From assembly GCA_050250895.1 (NCBI GenBank), contig JBFWNU010000002.1, positions 567,659 through 631,658 of the forward strand: a stretch of DNA of 64,000 nucleotides. Direction: 5' to 3'. This document shows positions 11,177 through 43,516 of the stretch, in pieces (position 1 is the stretch's first letter; each line of letters starts with the position of its first letter). A program made the translations under genes and the position numbers. The stretch is from Vulcanimicrobiota bacterium. GTDB lineage: Bacteria; Vulcanimicrobiota; Xenobia; Xenobiales; JADMJV01. A model generated the notes under the pieces. It was not told the origin of the DNA and did not search any database. It saw only the letters and a program-made list of their open reading frames with translations.

Positions 11177-12091
11177 CTAGGCTTTGGACCAGCGCTGGAT
11201 GGTTCCGTCTTCTTTGATTTTCTCGATGAAGGCTTTGCGGTTCTCGTCACGGTGGGCCAGGAACTCCTCGTGGGTGATCTCGCCCAGGGCCAGCGACTTG
11301 ACGCTGGGATCCTTCCAGGAGTTTGGCTCGGCCCCGGTCACCTTCTGGATGCCGACCTCCCATTTGCGCCAGAAGTCATTCTTGGCCAGGGTTTCGTTCC
11401 ACATGCCGTTGACGATGCAGTAGTTCTGATCCCACGGCGGACGATGGTGGGTGTTGTGATTCTCGGGGGTCTGGGCCAGGCCGACCTTCTGCAGCACTTT
11501 GGCCAGGGCCGGGGGATTGTCCATGTGGGCCCAGCGGTGGAAGCCCTGAGCCATGAACCCGGCGCTCAAAAAGGCCAGACCGGCCGAGGCCACGGCATAG
11601 TGCGGGTTGGCCAGCGCCATGGCTCCCATCGGAGCCCACAAGAAGCGACCTGCGTTCCACAGGTTCGAGGTCAGGCTGACCTCTTCCATGTCGTGGGCAT
11701 GGTAGTGGTGATGGATGAACTCGCGAGCCATCTTGCCCACCATGCCCGGTTTGTCGGGGTTGGGATAGTTGTCGACCCAGTGGTGGAAGATCCCACTGCC
11801 GAAGTCGGCAGCCACATAACCTGCGGCTGCTCCGCCGAGAGCCATCGCTCCGGCTGCCACTTTGGCGCCGATGCCCGGCTGGGCGGCGATCTGAGAGAGG
11901 ACGTTGTAACTGACCCAGGCCCCCGTGCCAACCACGGCCGCGGCCGCGAGCTTGTGCATGAGCGGGGTCTTGTAATCAGGGTTCTTGGGCGTGAAACTGT
12001 CTTGAGGGGCAGCCGTCTCGGGCTGTTTGCTAGAAACGGTGGGGGCGGGCGCGCTGGGGTAGGCGCCTCGGGATAAAGTGTTGACCTGCAC
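11177..12091 (-). CDS. CarF/TMEM189/FAD4-family lipid desaturase
   Basis: His boxes DFGSGIFHHWVD, FIHHH, HRWAH, HNTHH and YCIVNG; hydrophobic helices; AGGAGA RBS before the GTG. Confidence 0.85.
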   Translation of the reverse strand: MQVNTLSRGAYPSAPAPTVSSKQPETAAPQDSFTPKNPDYKTPLMHKLAAAAVVGTGAWVSYNVLSQIAAQPGIGAKVAAGAMALGGAAAGYVAADFGSGIFHHWVDNYPNPDKPGMVGKMAREFIHHHYHAHDMEEVSLTSNLWNAGRFLWAPMGAMALANPHYAVASAGLAFLSAGFMAQGFHRWAHMDNPPALAKVLQKVGLAQTPENHNTHHRPPWDQNYCIVNGMWNETLAKNDFWRKWEVGIQKVTGAEPNSWKDPSVKSLALGEITHEEFLAHRDENRKAFIEKIKEDGTIQRWSKA

Positions 12092-12155
12092 GATTTTCTC
12101 CTGCCGGTCACTCGCTGATTGTAGATTAGCATCCGGGTCTGAAAGAAAGCTGAAC

Positions 12156-12527
12156 GGGGAGCGCTCGCCGCGCTCCCGGGGAAAGGAGCGCTCGCTTCGC
12201 TCGCGGGAAAAGGAGCGGCCTTCGGCCGGGAAAAGGAGCGAAGCTCGCTGAGCTCGCTTCGGGAAAGGAGCTCTCGCTGCGCTCGAGGGAGAAGGAGCGC
12301 TTGCTTCGCTCGCGGGAAAAGGAGCGGCCCTGCGGGCCGGGATAAGGGGCGAAGCTCGCTGAGCTCGCTTCGGGAAAGGAATCTCAGCCGCAGGCTGCTC
12401 CCCGTCGGCCGGAGGCCGAAACGGCTCCTTTCCCGCCGACGCAGTCGGCGCTCCCTGTCGACGCGCAGCGTCGAAATCTCAGCCGCAGGCTGCTCCCCGT
12501 CGGCCGGAGGCCGAAACGGCTCCCTGT
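12156..12527. repeat. Modular mini-hairpin array, copy 1
   Basis: Left half has GGAGC-[hairpin]-GGGA(A/G/T)AA units. Right half has reverse-complement linkers (GCTCCTTTCCC, GCTCCCTGTC) with hairpins such as AGCC-GCA-GGCT, GCCGAC-GCA-GTCGGC and GACGC-GCA-GCGTC. Confidence 0.9.
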
Positions 12528-13355
12528 CTAGGGAGCGTTGGTTTCGACGAACTCCAGCAACTCTTGCAGGGGAACGGCTCGCGGGGGGTAGAGGACGACC
12601 CGGTCTACGCCCATCGCGGCATAGCGTTCCAGGTCGCCCTCAGCCAGTTCGCGCGGGGTGACGGTGATTTCCAGTTTACCCAGTTCAGGGGGACGCTGGT
12701 AGCGGTCGGCGGCTTCTTTTAGGCCCTCGAGATGTTTGACCAGCTTTTCGGGAGTCATGGCAAAGCCGTACCAACTGCGGGCCATCTGCACGCTGCGACG
12801 GTAAGTGGCCCGATGATAGCCGCCCATCACTAGCGGCAGCGGGCGTTGGTCGGGTCGAGGACTGGCGCTCACCCCCGAGAAGCTGACGAAGTCAGATTCG
12901 AAGCTGGCCGGTGCCTGGGTCCAGATGGCCTGCATGGCACCCAGATAGTCGTCGGTGCGGCGGGCTCGTTCGGCCAGGGTAACCCCCAAAGCCTTGAACT
13001 CCGGTTCGAGGTAGCCGACCCCGATGCCCACCAGCAGACGACCCTTGGAGAGCACGTCGAGGCTGGCCAACTGTTTGGCCAAGACCAGAGGCTGGCGCTG
13101 GGGCAGGATGATCACGCCGGTGCCCAGGAGCAGCCGCTCGGTGACGGCGGCTGCGAAGGTGAGGGCCACTACTGGCTCCAGCAACCGTTCCTCGGGCTTG
13201 AGGGGGGCAGGGGCTTGCCAGGGATCGGGCAAGACGATGTGGTCGCCGGCCCAGAGCGACTCATAGCCAAGCTCTTCGGCCCGCCGGGCGACCGCTCGAA
13301 TACCGTCGGGATAGCTACAGGCGTCGTGATTGAGAGAGAACAGTCCGAACTTCAT
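12528..13355 (-). CDS. LLM-class (luciferase-like, probably F420-dependent) oxidoreductase
   Basis: MKFGL..AEELGYESLWAGDH..LAKQLASLDVLSKGR. The ORF-track extension to 13439 runs into the repeat array. Confidence 0.9.
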   Translation of the reverse strand: MKFGLFSLNHDACSYPDGIRAVARRAEELGYESLWAGDHIVLPDPWQAPAPLKPEERLLEPVVALTFAAAVTERLLLGTGVIILPQRQPLVLAKQLASLDVLSKGRLLVGIGVGYLEPEFKALGVTLAERARRTDDYLGAMQAIWTQAPASFESDFVSFSGVSASPRPDQRPLPLVMGGYHRATYRRSVQMARSWYGFAMTPEKLVKHLEGLKEAADRYQRPPELGKLEITVTPRELAEGDLERYAAMGVDRVVLYPPRAVPLQELLEFVETNAP

Positions 13356-13356
13356 A

Positions 13357-13730
13357 GGCCGGCCTTCGGCCGCGTTAAGGAGCGGCCCTGCGGGCGAGGA
13401 GCGCTCGCTTCGCTCACGGGCAGCGCTCGCTTCGCTCACGGGAGAAGGAGCTCTCGCTGCGCTTGAGGGAAAAGGAGCGGCCCTGCGGGCCGGGATAAGG
13501 GGCGAAGCTCGCTGAGCTCGCTTCGAGAGATGGAGAGCGGCCGTTCTTTCCCGCCGACGCAGTCGGCGCTCCCTGTCGACGCGCAGCGTCGAAATCTCAG
13601 CCGCAGGCTGCTCCCTGTCGGCCGCAGGCCGAAACGGCTCCTTCTCCCGGCGGCGGCACGCCGCCGCTCCCTGTCGACGCGCAGCGTCGAAATCTCAGCC
13701 GCAGGCTGCTCCCCGTCGGCCGCAGGCCGA
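13357..13730. repeat. Modular mini-hairpin array, copy 2
   Basis: Same modules as copy 1 (GCTCGCTTCGCTC, GGCCCTGCGGGCC, CGAAGCTCGCTGAGCTCGCTTCG, GTCGACGCGCAGCGTCGAAATCTCAGCCGCAGGCTGCTCCC) in different number and order. Confidence 0.9.
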
Positions 13731-13757
13731 GCAGGGGTGGGACCCGAAGGCGACGGC

Positions 13758-14759
13758 ATGCGATTTGGAGCTTTTACCCCCCAGGGTTGGCGTCTCGACC
13801 TGGTCGACGTCGAGCCGGGGTTTCCTCAGTACGTTCGGATGCGCGAGGTCGCCCTCGAGGCCGAGCGCCTCGGTTATGACAGCGTCTGGCTGTATGATCA
13901 CTTTCATACGGTGCCCGAAGCCTTGCCCGAGGCCACCTTCGAGGTATGGACGGCCACGGCCGCCCTGGCTGAAGCCACTTCGACCATCCGGCTGGGTCAG
14001 ATGTGTGGCTGCAACATTTATCGCCCTCCGGCCCTGCTGGCCAAGATCACGGCCAATATCGACGTCATCTCGAACGGCCGGCTGGACCTGGGCCTGGGGG
14101 CCGGGTGGTATCAGCACGAGACCGTCGCTTACGGCTATCCGTTCGAGAAGCCGGCGGTCCGCATCGGGCAGCTCGATGAGGCCGCTCAGATCCTCAAAGG
14201 CATGTGGACTCAGGACCATTTTGCCTTCGAGGGCAAGTACTACACGGTCGGCAAAGGCCAGGTCAAGGATTACCGCGGCCAACCCGCCGAGTTGAAGGGG
14301 GCCATCAACCATCCCAAACCGGTGCAAAATCCTCATCCTCCCATGTGGCTGGCTGGTGGGGGAGAGCAGTTGACCTTGCGCACGGTGGCCCGCTACGCCG
14401 ACTACTCGAACTATAGCGGCAGCATCGGGGACGTGCAGCACAAAAATCAGGTACTCGACCGCCACTGCGAGCAGCAACAGCGCGACCCCGCCGCCATCAC
14501 GCGCACCATGAACATCAATGTCATGCTGGCTTCAGAGCACGAGATCACGAGTCTGCTCGAGGCCAGTGGTCGCGGTCCCAGGGATATCGCCGCCATGAAG
14601 AAGATGCTGTATCCCACCGAGCCTCAGGCCCTTATCGACTGTTTGGCCGAGTATCGTGACCTGGCTCGCATCGACTACATCATCGTCTATTTTCCCGACG
14701 CAGGTCGCGGGCCTTCCCTGGAGCGATTCGCTAAAGAGGTGGCTCCGGCTCTGCGATAG
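13758..14759 (+). CDS. LLM-class (probably F420-dependent) oxidoreductase
   Basis: MRFGAFTPQGW..WLYDHF..DVISNGRL.LGLGAGW..PKPVQ.PHPP..GGGE. Confidence 0.9.
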   Translation: MRFGAFTPQGWRLDLVDVEPGFPQYVRMREVALEAERLGYDSVWLYDHFHTVPEALPEATFEVWTATAALAEATSTIRLGQMCGCNIYRPPALLAKITANIDVISNGRLDLGLGAGWYQHETVAYGYPFEKPAVRIGQLDEAAQILKGMWTQDHFAFEGKYYTVGKGQVKDYRGQPAELKGAINHPKPVQNPHPPMWLAGGGEQLTLRTVARYADYSNYSGSIGDVQHKNQVLDRHCEQQQRDPAAITRTMNINVMLASEHEITSLLEASGRGPRDIAAMKKMLYPTEPQALIDCLAEYRDLARIDYIIVYFPDAGRGPSLERFAKEVAPALR

Positions 14760-40776: not shown

Positions 40777-41475
40777 GTGAATTTCGGAATGAATTTTCAG
40801 CTCGGCCTGGGAGTGCCCCAGGCCGGTTATTCAGGCTACTCATGCGGTGGTGGCCAAAACCCCCTGACCGGACTCTTCCAACTCATTCTGGGCCTGATGA
40901 TGGGCCTGCTCGGGGGCGATGTCTGCTCGAACCTGCTGGGTGGTGATTCGCGAGGCCACTGCTTTAGCCCCAACAATCCGAGCTTCGGTACCGGCTTCAA
41001 CCCCGGTCGATCCTTTGGCGCCCCTCTGGGGGGCTTTCTGGGCGCCCCCAACGGCGGCGACACCTTCTCGGCCGGAAATGCTCCTTCGGTCGACCTCGGC
41101 TCGATTCAGGGCGGAACACCCTGGGGGCGCTCGCTGGCCTCCGACGCCGCCCGCAACGCCAACGGACCGGGCGGCTGGTGCTACAAATGGGTAGCCAATG
41201 CCCTGGGCCGCCACGGCGTCAATGTGCACGGAGCCAGTGCCTACATGGCCGCCGACCAGCTGGCCGGCAATCCCAAGTTTCGCGAAGTACGGGTCCCGGC
41301 CAACCAGTTGCGCAACCTGCCTCCCGGTGCGGTCGTGGTCTGGAATCGCGGCGCCGGTCACCCCCACGGCCACATCTCGATCGCTTTAGGCGACGGCCGC
41401 GAGGCCAGCGACAAGATTCGCAATCAAATCACCAACTACGGTACCTCCTTCCGAGTCTTTCTGCCGAACCAATGA
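40777..41475 (+). CDS. Gly-rich N-terminus plus NlpC/P60/CHAP-like amidase domain
   Basis: GWCYKWVANAL..PGAVVVW..HGHISI gives a Cys-His pair; GAGG RBS before GTG 40777. Confidence 0.72.
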   Translation: MNFGMNFQLGLGVPQAGYSGYSCGGGQNPLTGLFQLILGLMMGLLGGDVCSNLLGGDSRGHCFSPNNPSFGTGFNPGRSFGAPLGGFLGAPNGGDTFSAGNAPSVDLGSIQGGTPWGRSLASDAARNANGPGGWCYKWVANALGRHGVNVHGASAYMAADQLAGNPKFREVRVPANQLRNLPPGAVVVWNRGAGHPHGHISIALGDGREASDKIRNQITNYGTSFRVFLPNQ

Positions 41476-41849
41476 AAGCCGAAAGCAGAGCAATCCTGGA
41501 AGAACTCTCCTTTCCCGCCCTGGTGCCGAATTGGCTTCCCGACGGCCTGGGCGAGCCCAGCCTGCGCTGCGACTCGGACAGCTATCTGTTGAGCTGGTCG
41601 GGCCCCGGCCTGGCCGTCAAAGTTCAGGGCACCTGTGGGGGGGTCGGCGACTTTCCCCCGGGTGAGCGCCGCTTCACTTTCTCGAGCGCCCTTTTCGGCG
41701 AGGCCGTACTCGAGATCGACGACAACGAGATCACCACCCAGTGGCTCTCTGAGGTCGAAGGCGAGTTCCCGGCCTACAACGTCTCGGCCATCGGCCTCTC
41801 GCCCGACCAGGTGATCTCGGTGGTGAACTCCCTGGCTGCGCTCGGGTAA
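41472..41849 (+). CDS. Small acidic hypothetical protein coupled to the amidase gene
   Basis: ATGA overlap at 41472-41475; 125 aa. Confidence 0.65.
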
Positions 41850-41992
41850 GGAGCGCTCGCGGAAAGGAGCGGCCCTGCGGGCGAGGAGCGCTCGCTTCGC
41901 TCACGGGAGAAGGAGCGGCCTTCGGCCGGGATAAGGAGCGCCGGCTCCTTTCTCGGCGGCACGCCGCTCCCTGTCGACGCGATAGCGTCGAA
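41844..41992. repeat. Modular mini-hairpin array, copy 3 (short)
   Basis: GGAGC-linked modules GGCCCTGCGGGC, GCTCGCTTCGCTC and CGGCCTTCGGCCG, then GCTCCTTTCTC, GGCG-GCA-CGCC and GCTCCCTGTCGACGC. Confidence 0.88.
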
Positions 41993-42028: not shown

Positions 42029-43516
42029 ATGAGTTTCATCCTGGCCCTCGATCAGGGCACCACCAGCAGTCGAGCGATTCTTTTCGACCACTCCGGCAAG
42101 GTTTGCGGAGTGGCTCAGAAAGAGTTCGAGCAGATCTTTCCCAAACCGGGCTGGGTCGAGCATCGGCCCGACGAGATCTGGTCATCGCAGCTGCAGGTGG
42201 CGATTGCCGTGCTTGCCCAGAACGATGTCGACCCGAAGGCGGTCAAGGCCATCGGCATCACCAACCAGCGCGAGACCACCGTGGTCTGGGACCGGCGTAG
42301 CGGCAAGGCTTTGACTAACGCTATCGTGTGGCAGGATCGGCGCACCTCCGAGTTCTGCGACAAGCTGCGGGCTGACGGTCGGGCCGAGGATATTCGGGCA
42401 CGGACCGGGCTCGAGATCGATGCCTATTTCTCGGGCAGCAAGCTGGCTTGGATCCTGGCTAACGTCGAGGGGGCCCGGCGTTTGGCCGAGGCCGGCCATC
42501 TGGCTTTCGGCACGGTCGATAGCTGGCTGGTCTACAAGTTGACGGCGGGCCGGGTGCATGTGACCGATGTCAGCAATGCCTCGCGCACCATGCTCTATAA
42601 TCTGGCCGAAGGCCGCTGGGATCCGACTCTGCTCGAGTTGTTCGACATCCCCGAGAGTGTCTTGCCCGAGGTCAGGGCCTCGAGCGAGGTCTATGGCGAA
42701 ACCGACAGCGGTATCTTTCCCCGCTCGATTCCGCTGGCCGGCATCGCCGGCGATCAGCAGGCGGCCCTGTTCGGGCAGCTTTGCACCCGTCGAGGCCTTT
42801 CCAAGAATACCTACGGCACCGGTTGCTTTATGCTCCTCAACGTGGGAGACGAGCCGGTCCCCTCCAAGCATCGCCTGCTGACGACGGCCGCCTGGCGGCT
42901 GGGCGAGCGCACCGAGTATGCCCTCGAAGGCAGCGTCTTTGTGGCCGGAGCCGTGGTCCAGTGGTTGCGAGACGGGCTGGGCCTCATCCGCTCGGCAGGC
43001 GAGGTCGAAGAGTTGGCCGGGCGGGTCGAGTCGACTGATGGGGTCTTTCTGGTGCCGGCCTTCGCCGGCCTGGGGGCTCCTCACTGGGACCAGTACGCCA
43101 GGGGCACCCTGGTGGGAATGACGCGCGGGACCACCGGCGCTCATATCGCTCGGGCTGCCCTCGAGGGGATCGCCTTTCAGGTGGCCGACGTGCTCGAGGC
43201 CATGCGAGCCGACTCGGGGCTCGACCTGGTCGAACTGCGCGTCGACGGTGGAGCCTCGGCCAACAATCTGCTGATGCAGATTCAGGCCGACCTTTTGGGC
43301 GTGCCCACGGTGCGACCCAAAGTCACCGAAACCACCGCCCTGGGAGCGGCCTACCTGGCCGGTCTGGCGGTCGATTTCTGGAAGAGCACCGACGAGCTGA
43401 CCGACCAGTGGCAGGTCGACCGGCGCTTTGAACCCCGCCTTTCGGCCGATGAGGTGAGCGCACGACGGGCCCGCTGGGCCCGGGCGCTCGAGCGGGCCAA
43501 GAGCTGGGAACAATGA
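42029..43516 (+). CDS. glpK: Glycerol kinase
   Basis: [38 protein letters not shown]. Confidence 0.97.

Follow-up and report, generated by a model that had tools for sequence, protein, structure and literature searches.

Two-armed arrays of C(GNA)G mini-hairpins form a dispersed, probably REP-like extragenic family in a Vulcanimicrobiota genome

Introduction

Repetitive extragenic palindromic (REP)-type repeats are common in bacteria, and their origin, spread, and function are disputed. As described in PMC3733652, REP families strongly prefer head-to-head dimers and clusters, lie downstream of genes, and include a CGTC type without a dedicated transposase. REP doublets in inverted orientation are presented in PMC3116915 as the replicative unit, and REP325 of Escherichia coli is reported to be both a partial terminator and an mRNA stabilizer (10.64898/2026.03.23.713779). 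Here, we describe a family of hairpin arrays, three of which lie in a 64-kb stretch (the window, taken at its full length) of the genome of a Vulcanimicrobiota bacterium. We conclude that these arrays are very probably a lineage-specific family of extragenic hairpin elements, marked by a GCTCC tag and similar to REPs and bacterial interspersed mosaic elements (BIMEs) or to the inverted REP doublets that form hairpins (REPINs). The family is an unusually readable case, because a C-GNA-G rule and G.A blocks mark the functional strand, polarity flips only once per array, and the genome has no Y1 transposase.

The hairpins resemble motifs known from DNA chemistry. The DNA mini-hairpins GCGNAGC and GCGNNAGC are reported to be much more stable than their RNA versions (PMC13037366), and tandem sheared G:A pairs, or CGAG blocks, are documented as DNA motifs in PMC10085684. 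An earlier model-made interpretation of the window, based on its letters and open reading frames (ORFs) (the sequence-only reading), had invoked this mini-hairpin chemistry, which is indeed published (PMC13037366), and had suggested selection on single-stranded DNA (ssDNA) and spread by an HUH nuclease similar to the REP-associated tyrosine transposases (RAYTs).

Results

The window covers positions 567659 to 631658 of contig C2 (G000:C2:567659-631658) in an assembly of 9.50 Mb (17 contigs, 63% G+C, 99.64% complete). Its three arrays, all noncoding and intergenic, are chains of very short GC-rich hairpins split by recurring GGGAnAAGGAGC linkers. When up to one mismatch is allowed, the window has 12 copies of the linker GGGANAAGGAGC, every one inside the three arrays, compared with 2.5 expected from shuffled versions of the window (0 of 100 shuffles reached 12). 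Genome-wide, there are 123 exact linker copies in 43 clusters, and BLAST with the three window loci recovered 68 clusters that cover about 13 kb. A definition of the unit that uses structure only (a C(GNA)G hairpin with 4 bp or more, then CTCC within 3 nt) gave 357 units in 185 clusters, 74 of which have two or more units (246 units). Of these 74 multi-unit clusters, 33 had been missed by BLAST. Linker subfamilies number at least two, the second being GAGRNGGGAGC.

Each unit comprises a hairpin of 11 to 17 nt and a linker of 9 to 12 nt. One strand reads as a pyrimidine spacer, a GC-rich stem of 4 to 7 bp, a C-G-closed GNA triloop, and a (G)CTCC tag; the opposite strand reads as GGAGC, a TNC-loop hairpin, and a purine spacer. 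CTCCC or CTCCT lies 3' of 301 of the 357 stems. GGAG/CTCC is the sole core common to both linker subfamilies, and because both keep it, we consider the hairpin plus (G)CTCC to be the shared core of the family. GTAG or CTAC was found near 4 of the 357 units, and CGTC or GACG near 9.

The loop rule is strand specific. The BLAST-defined arrays contain 379 triloop hairpins with stems of 4 bp or longer, and 314 of them are closed by C-G, compared with 20284 of 53999 outside arrays. Beside CTCC-type linkers, the loops are GNA in 140 cases and TNC in 6; beside GGAG-type linkers, they are TNC in 99 and GNA in 6. Loop sequences are not random across the genomic copies: in 300 oriented C-G-closed hairpins, G occupies position 1 in 242 and A occupies position 3 in 254, and the middle base varies (C, 157; A, 102; G, 24; T, 17). 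These hairpins have 38 distinct stems, 29 of which carry a GNA loop. In the background outside arrays, GNA and TNC together account for 13.3% of the 20284 C-G-closed hairpins. A polarity control found GNA then CTCC in 357 of 2968 cases genome-wide, versus 59 of 2968 for TNC then CTCC.

The stems carry strand-specific features as well. On the GNA strand, mismatches are purine-purine in 98 of 119 cases (G.A, 41; A.G, 32; A.A, 18; G.G, 7), and the others are G.T/T.G (10), C.A/A.C (7), or pyrimidine-pyrimidine (4); the counts of G.T and A.C (10 versus 7) are uninformative. The modules GCGAGC-GAA-GCGAGC and TCGAGC-GCA-GCGAGA form C-GA-G tandem-mismatch hairpins on the GNA strand and poor C.T/T.C hairpins on the other. 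By the published sequence rules, the arrays contain both C-G-closed GNA mini-hairpins and CGAG blocks. A frequent central hairpin, GAACTGAGC-GACA-GCTCAGTTC, has a GCGACAGC (GNNA) loop on the same strand as the GNA loops. In a pair count over 51 distinct units, 84% of cells are paired versus 55% in shuffles, and each of the three pairs next to the invariant closing C-G occurs as three pair types (GC, CG, and AU). Since the rows were selected for at least 4 pairs, only the outer three pairs (38, 34, and 25 of 51 paired) provide an independent check.

Units are ordered by polarity. In the 26 arrays with both linker types, purine (GGAGC) linkers precede pyrimidine (GCTCC) linkers on the plus strand, fully in 25 and at 0.89 in the remaining one, in which the deviation comes from a terminal CTAGGGAGC palindrome. 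An independent structural inventory found the purine (P)-then-pyrimidine (Y) order in 17 of 18 two-polarity clusters, the exception being a single overlapping 20-nt site. Because the layout is symmetric, the same order holds on the minus strand. Units run head to tail within an arm and are never inverted, the Y-then-P order was never seen, and 18 of the BLAST-defined arrays are one-armed. In a full element, the units of one arm are opposite in polarity to those of the other, and the tags face outwards. The sequence-only reading had described mirror-image halves, strand-specific C(GNA)G loops on different stems, and modules that vary in number and order while polarity is shared, and had suggested a REP/BIME-like family; the genome-wide inventory bears out each of these proposals.

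The two arms are frequently unequal (e.g., 14 versus 7 linkers) and have partly different module sets in a loose outer-to-inner order. From the outside inwards, the P arm has GCTCGC-TKC-GCTCRC, TCTCGC-TKC-GCTYGA, GGCC(C)-TKC-(G)GGCC, and then a longer central hairpin; the Y arm is made of sets of about three hairpins, each set recurring after roughly 73 nt. In contrast to miniature inverted-repeat transposable elements (MITEs), whose terminal inverted repeats match, the recurrent ends also differ by arm, with GCGCTCGCTKCGCTCRC often outermost in the P arm and GCTCCCYGT plus a hairpin often outermost in the Y arm. Inspection of 19 arrays by eye revealed no direct repeat of the kind left by target-site duplication, no formal search having been made. 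A CRISPR array was considered and rejected, as the stretches between linkers are recurring hairpin modules and not unique spacers.

Nearest-neighbor folding predicts perfect module hairpins of equal energy on both strands with either DNA or RNA parameters. A strand energy gap was seen only for the G.A modules and with RNA parameters only (-4.9 versus -3.4 and -3.3 versus -1.5 kcal/mol). Because the energies are equal and the method has no loop-specific terms, folding does not discriminate between DNA and RNA. For whole arrays, RNAfold predicts long-range pairing of the two arms into a rod, with a z score of only about -3.7 on either strand. The branched rod between arms that the sequence-only reading envisaged may form, but the z score is modest and arm sizes are often very unequal (e.g., 14 versus 7 linkers).

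The three loci, their named hairpins, and their linkers read in the window as originally described. Two positions were adjusted: array 1 extends to about 12536, and array 3 begins in the stop codon region 41844-41849. The arms and the genes around arrays 1 and 2 are as follows.

11180 to 12091, minus strand: lipid desaturase domain protein gene (PF10520), left of array 1
12156 to 12371: array 1, P (purine-linker) arm, with units of GGGAnAAGGAGC plus a hairpin and closing with GAAGCTCGCTGAGCTCGCTTC
12372 to 12384: array 1, polarity-flip junction, placed by eye
12385 to 12536: array 1, Y (pyrimidine-linker) arm, with GCA or GGA loops on the plus strand
12531 to 13355, minus strand: luciferase-like monooxygenase gene between arrays 1 and 2 (PF00296, E 2e-46, aligned from residue 1)
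13357 to 13524: array 2, P arm, beginning 2 nt past the start codon (13353-13355, minus strand) of the preceding luciferase-like monooxygenase gene
13525 to 13552: array 2, center, with the sequence GAGAGATGGAGAGCGGCCGTTCTTTCCC
13553 to 13730: array 2, Y arm, with GCA loops on the plus strand and ending 27 nt before the ATG at 13758
13758 to 14756, plus strand: luciferase-like monooxygenase gene (PF00296, E 1.4e-41, aligned from residue 1), right of array 2
41844 to 41942: array 3, P arm, with GGGTAAGGAGC as first linker
41943 to 41991: array 3, short Y arm, with GGCTCCTTTCTC, CGGCGGCACGCCG, CTCCCTGT, and CGACGCGATAGCGTCG

In the P arm of array 1, loops are TTC or TGC on the plus strand (GAA or GCA on the minus strand), CGAG-block modules GCTCGC-TTC-GCTCGC are present, and a tandem period of 27 was found. 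The linkers of its Y arm are GCTCCCCGT, AAACGGCTCCTTTCCC, GCTCCCTGT, and GAAATCTC, and a stretch of about 47 nt occurs twice in this arm, about 95 nt apart. Array 1 hairpins include CGGCC-TTC-GGCCG (12216-12228) and CGGCCC-TGC-GGGCCG (12325-12339) in the P arm, and CAGCC-GCA-GGCTG (12385-12397), TCGGCC-GGA-GGCCGA (12405-12419), CGCCGAC-GCA-GTCGGCG (12434-12450), and TCGACGC-GCA-GCGTCGA (12458-12474) in the Y arm.

Array 1 is flanked by the stop of the luciferase-like gene at 12531-13355 and the start of the lipid desaturase gene at 11180-12091, both on the minus strand. The 402-bp gap (13356-13757) between the start codons of the divergent luciferase-like genes is array 2 in its entirety; thus, the promoters and 5' untranslated regions (UTRs) of both genes must be inside the array. 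A sigma-70 consensus scan of 11900-14000, which includes this gap, returned zero promoter-like sites. The TAA stop (41847-41849) of the ORF at 41178-41849 falls within the first linker-like motif of array 3, GGGTAAGGAGC, and the start of an FGGY (glycerol-kinase-like) gene at 42029 is 37 nt downstream of this array. Elsewhere, the arrays at C2:538908, C2:652713, and C5:235690 begin at a stop codon or no more than a few bases from one, and many arrays take up exactly the space that separates two stop codons. For 31 arrays, both neighboring genes were called; 11 of these arrays lie between convergent, 16 between tandem, and 4 between divergent genes, so placement leans to gene 3' ends, as for REPs, without reaching significance. 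A-to-B arm order had no pattern with respect to gene direction, and array positions had no relation to the GC-skew minimum or maximum of contig C1.

Arrays are concentrated in some regions (e.g., C1 2.70-2.80 Mb and C2 0.50-0.66 Mb), and 6 of the 34 contig ends and several N gaps are in or beside arrays. Dense GGAGC or GCTCC occurs at the ends of C1 and C2 and at the starts of C3, C4, C5, and C6; array-flanked N gaps are at C1:519998, C1:3250981, C1:3456139, and C9:102388, and some arrays are longer than assembled. Because the assembly breaks at arrays, our inventory is a lower bound and module counts are provisional; the arrays account for part of the fragmentation of the assembly. The GAGRNGGGAGC subfamily, whose linker reads GCTCCCYTCTC along the GNA strand, carries a longer central or terminal element of its own, which contains GTCGACGCTTCGCGTCGTAATCC. 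Its loci include C1:2737909-2738633, C1:3173640-3173954, C1:3623677-3624325, C11:64100-64386, C4:762990-763134, and C2:395880-396207.

No enzyme that could mobilize the arrays was recognized. The Y1 transposase domain of RAYT and IS200 enzymes (PF01797) has 0 matches in this 99.64%-complete genome, in a search whose control was positive in 6 of 14 named genomes, and TnpB (PF07282) also has 0 matches. The 0 matches to the Y2 domain (PF04986) are uninformative, because the control for it was silent. With all ORFs within 4 kb of 45 arrays clustered, no gene family recurs beside arrays beyond chance. A recurrent group of six neighbors proved to be GGDEF/response-regulator paralogues and was rejected as array associated. 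A second group of six, rejected likewise, consists of members of a paralogue family with some 75 copies and without a Pfam match, for which about three neighbors are expected by chance. The best copies at different loci share about 70 to 78% identity over 250 to 330 bp, and 83 to 94% only over about 60 to 140 bp. We also rejected an origin as IS200/IS605-derived palindrome-associated transposable elements (PATEs), given the 0 matches to PF01797 and PF07282 and a hairpin strand that flips between arms.

The 75-copy paralogues merit an observation in their own right. They are proteins of 300 to 640 amino acids with about 25 to 35% mutual identity (e.g., C2:540171-541484 on the minus strand, C1:2409168-2410277, and C7:303766-304974) and have no Pfam match at E <= 1e-5. 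Six copies are 1 to 2 kb from arrays, near the chance number. Their nearest Atlas clusters are mostly from Vulcanimicrobiota, and their structure neighbors include HATPase_c_3/Hsp90-like (GHKL) proteins.

A relative, about 89 to 93% identical, occurs in other samples. Contigs from four sludge or wastewater metagenomes (four studies) align to array flanks with about 7 to 13 differences per 100 letters (e.g., 120 differences in 1664 bases, 111 in 935, and 192 in 1446). The relative's contigs enter the same array edges and then break inside the arrays. Compared with the window, they lack 29 nt at 12156 and 27 nt at 12492, i.e., module-sized insertions or deletions and no gain or loss of a whole element. 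Because four independent metagenomes share these edges, the arrays are not an artifact of one assembly; they are kept at their sites and vary by whole modules. Apparent joints between arrays 1 and 2 in metagenome contigs rest on a repeat of 21 to 31 nt and were rejected as rearrangements. In four DNA sequencing runs, small shares of the sampled words (0.05-0.07) were found.

Beyond this relative, no arrays came to light. BLAST of array 1 was positive in 0 of 30 relatives (1 of the same genus, 14 of the same family, and 15 of the same order); the same-genus genome is distant, its FGGY kinase being only 65% identical in amino acids and synteny being absent at the kinase gene. Linker-based pattern scans returned 94 genome loci, from a collection in which each GTDB species has one genome, and 24 loci from metagenomes, none with two or more units in 300 bp, in searches whose own-genome controls gave 4 to 5 units and which may omit records of this or very near genomes. 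A looser GGAGC-spacing pattern, run on 15 genomes of the family, found coding repeats and chance matches at a level that the control equaled, with a spacing too short for the main subfamily. Rfam, which the sequence-only reading had named as a check, has 0 matches to the window at the gathering score and 0 at E <= 1 to 12100-13800. No description of such arrays was found in the literature covered, which excludes subscription journals and supplementary files. From these comparisons of sequence, the family appears to be lineage specific.

Two repeats seen along the way are unrelated to the hairpin arrays. In an Ardenticatenaceae metagenome-assembled genome, a purine-rich tandem (GGGAGAAGGAGC AGAGGGGCAGAG)n runs straight into its pyrimidine-rich complement, a tandem with CTCCGCTCC (L016:1980-2490, minus strand, and L077:655-1250, plus strand); this mirror repeat has no hairpin modules, and both loci are partly N-masked. 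An 18-nt tandem repeat, GGAGCTAACCCGAACACC, with variants at C1:3355320-3355810 and a similar unit in a relative of the same family (G009:C89:10381-10655), probably encodes a hexapeptide repeat.

Discussion

We propose that the two-armed composite, and not the single hairpin, would be the dispersed entity, because units never invert within an arm and the opposite arm order is never seen. Arms would lengthen or shorten later through tandem duplication or slippage, a process supported by the module-sized differences from the relative. The element may work as an orientation-independent single-stranded structure, most likely in RNA. Owing to the polarity rule, transcripts that enter from the two sides are laid out alike. 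Purine linkers come first, and their AAGGAG core is complementary to the 16S 3' end CACCTCCTTTCT over 7 nt; GNA hairpins follow, each trailed by CUCCUUUUCCC. Read-through transcripts from either side would meet stacked stable hairpins, each then followed by a CUCCUUUUCCC-like tract. A terminator consensus scan of 11900-14000 found 9 sites versus 1.8 expected, about 6 of them in array units (a hairpin plus CTCCTTTTCC on the GNA strand).

We take a transcript-end structure to be the most likely role because of the bidirectional-terminator layout, the flagged units, and the REP325 precedent. The array would be a transcription-attenuating, decay-blocking 3'-UTR element, like those reported for E. 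coli REPs. Considered separately, the REP/BIME- or REPIN-like identity of the family is very probable, and the role as a terminator or stabilizer at the RNA level is tentative; a single figure that blends our confidence in the two is roughly 0.55.

Several observations weigh against this proposal. Recent transposition is not evident, because identity between loci is low, and no mobilizing enzyme was found that would account for spread to at least 74 loci. Since array 2 lies in the 402-bp divergent promoter gap, a role in the 3' UTR cannot be its only one, and it has to supply promoters or tolerate them. The U tract, at 4 U, is short, and C interrupts it. The bias toward convergent genes is weak (11:16:4 against 1:2:1; chi-square of about 3.2, p of about 0.2), and one-armed arrays by co-directional genes have no preferred orientation, with about four presenting the pyrimidine strand and five the purine strand in the transcript (from rough gene calls). 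Finally, GNA triloops and CGAG blocks are reported to be especially stable in DNA (PMC13037366, PMC10085684), so a DNA role fits equally well or better.

The first alternative is that the arrays are an ssDNA-level element in which GNA and CGAG mini-hairpins form on transient ssDNA, such as the lagging-strand template or the nontemplate strand, and are recognized beside GCTCC by a hairpin-specific enzyme (HUH/RAYT-like, a primase, or another) that copies or moves the element. The C-G-closed GNA rule and the CGAG blocks on the same strand match motifs described as stable in DNA and weaker in RNA (PMC13037366, PMC10085684). A tag beside the hairpin (CTCCC or CTCCT at 301 of 357 units) resembles the end logic of REP/RAYT and IS200/IS605 systems as outlined in PMC3733652, and the inverted two-armed layout resembles the REPINs of PMC3116915. 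Array 2 also suits this alternative, as it lies between divergent promoters, where a role in the 3' UTR cannot apply. Against it, the genome has neither PF01797 nor PF07282, no neighboring gene family exceeds chance, no near-identical dispersed copies were seen, and folding programs do not separate DNA from RNA. We regard it as unlikely. The RAYT idea in particular is not supported, because the genome is without a Y1 transposase and TnpB, and no neighboring gene recurs beyond chance. This part of the sequence-only reading is not borne out, folding does not separate its suggested selection on ssDNA from selection on RNA, and its interpretation as a whole is partly supported.

In a more specific version, which we consider rather unlikely, the arrays would be a strand-specific ssDNA code and a RAYT-independent, REPIN-like replicator in a little-studied phylum, with a non-Y1 ssDNA enzyme that recognizes a hairpin plus GCTCC. 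Nuclease-resistant stacks of GNA and CGAG hairpins may fold on the strand exposed 5' to 3' (lagging-strand template or nontemplate strand), and the single flip may let the distal arm fold whatever the direction of the fork or polymerase.

A structured RNA or sponge is quite improbable. The purine strand would titrate 30S subunits (as a Shine-Dalgarno mimic) or a GGA-binding protein such as CsrA, or the pyrimidine strand would mimic the 16S 3' end. The purine strand has up to 14 AAGGAG motifs between hairpins, an arrangement reminiscent of Csr/Rsm sponge RNAs. Because the 16S rRNA ends in GGATCACCTCCTTTCTAG, GGGAAAAGGAGC matches it in complement along 7 nt or more (AAAGGAG), and GCTCCTTTTCCC resembles the anti-Shine-Dalgarno tail. 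GGAG/CTCC is also the sole core common to both subfamilies, and the genome has one CsrA gene. However, at least 74 scattered, UTR-like loci are unlike one or a few dedicated sponge genes, 11900-14000 has no promoter-like site, 12100-13800 has no Rfam match even at E <= 1, and array length is free to vary across loci and strains. Moreover, the structural signal (GNA loops and G.A pairs) is on the strand opposite the GGA motifs.

We give a similarly low chance to a duplex or cruciform DNA element, such as a gyrase or nucleoid-protein site, an insulator, or a carrier of outward promoters. For E. coli BIMEs, binding of several proteins has been reported (PMC2817692), array 2 is the whole promoter region of two divergent genes, and arrays are regionally clustered. 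Yet a duplex-binding site would not readily account for the strand asymmetry (GNA versus TNC, with mismatches of the purine-purine type on one strand only), the arrays have no relation to the skew extremes of C1, and stem sequences vary. Least probable of all is that the arrays have no function, being neutral slippage-prone junk or partly an assembly artifact: 6 of 34 contig ends and several N gaps are in or beside arrays, short-read metagenome contigs break inside them, and they are unseen outside the lineage, but assemblies from four studies reach the same edges, the closing pair and the first and third loop positions are conserved on 38 stems while the middle base drifts, and the polarity order has one partial exception in 26 arrays and one in 18 clusters.

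If the proposed REP-like family acts in RNA, it would be a compact, orientation-independent module for ending or stabilizing transcripts in a high-GC lineage. If it acts in DNA, it would be the first dispersed genomic family made of mini-hairpin motifs known from phage origins and test tubes.

At the level of the single unit, the arrays can be set beside the described mini-hairpins. With d(GCGNAGC), d(GCGNNAGC), and CGAG blocks, the arrays share the C-G-closed GNA triloop, the GNNA loop, and the Y-GA-R sequence rule for tandem sheared G:A pairs (as given in PMC13037366 and PMC10085684). Those motifs are physicochemical and are found singly (in phage ssDNA origins, ssiA, and a human promoter), whereas the arrays would be a dispersed family of predicted folds. 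Bidirectional intrinsic terminators have a similar succession of an A or purine tract, one or more GC hairpins, and a T or pyrimidine tract, the same on both strands. In contrast to these, the arrays have many hairpins, only 4 consecutive T, and C-rich linkers, and one lies in a divergent promoter gap.

The nearest counterparts are REPs/BIMEs and REPINs and, among REPs, the CGTC class. The REPs and BIMEs of enterobacteria and Pseudomonas, as characterized in PMC3733652 and PMC2817692, share with the arrays GC-rich extragenic palindromes, an end tag, mosaics joined by linkers, a preferred orientation, a position mostly after genes, and lineage specificity. As short GC-rich palindromes in many extragenic copies, the arrays belong to REPs/BIMEs in the broad sense; they have neither the GTAG or CGTC tag of the REP superfamilies (Di Nocera 2013) nor a RAYT. 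Their tag is (G)CTCC/GGAGC and not GTAG, and they have stems of 4 to 7 bp and strict 3-nt GNA loops. BIME units alternate, whereas array units are head to tail with a single flip, in a genome without a RAYT. The CGTC REPs (dRS3 of Neisseria and RPE-4 and RPE-6 of Rickettsia) likewise have no dedicated transposase in the account of PMC3733652, and head-to-head dimers dominate there; their stems are 8 to 9 bp, their loops are 4 to 5 nt, and their tag is CGTC, a motif near which (as CGTC or GACG) only 9 of 357 array units lie.

The arrays show the two inverted halves and preferred orientation that define a REPIN. As described in PMC3116915, REPINs resemble them further in that the inverted halves form the unit, a long hairpin can fold in ssDNA or RNA, single copies have the look of decayed remnants, and tandem arrays occur. 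In contrast to a REPIN half, which is one REP, an array half comprises a variable number of tandem mini-hairpins, up to about 15, and the two arms have different module sets; the arrays also have no cognate RAYT and no sign of excision. Overall, as judged from its sequence, the array family differs from these known families in its tag, very short stems, obligatory GNA loops, G.A blocks, many head-to-tail units per arm with a single inversion, and arm-specific modules, and it has no RAYT.

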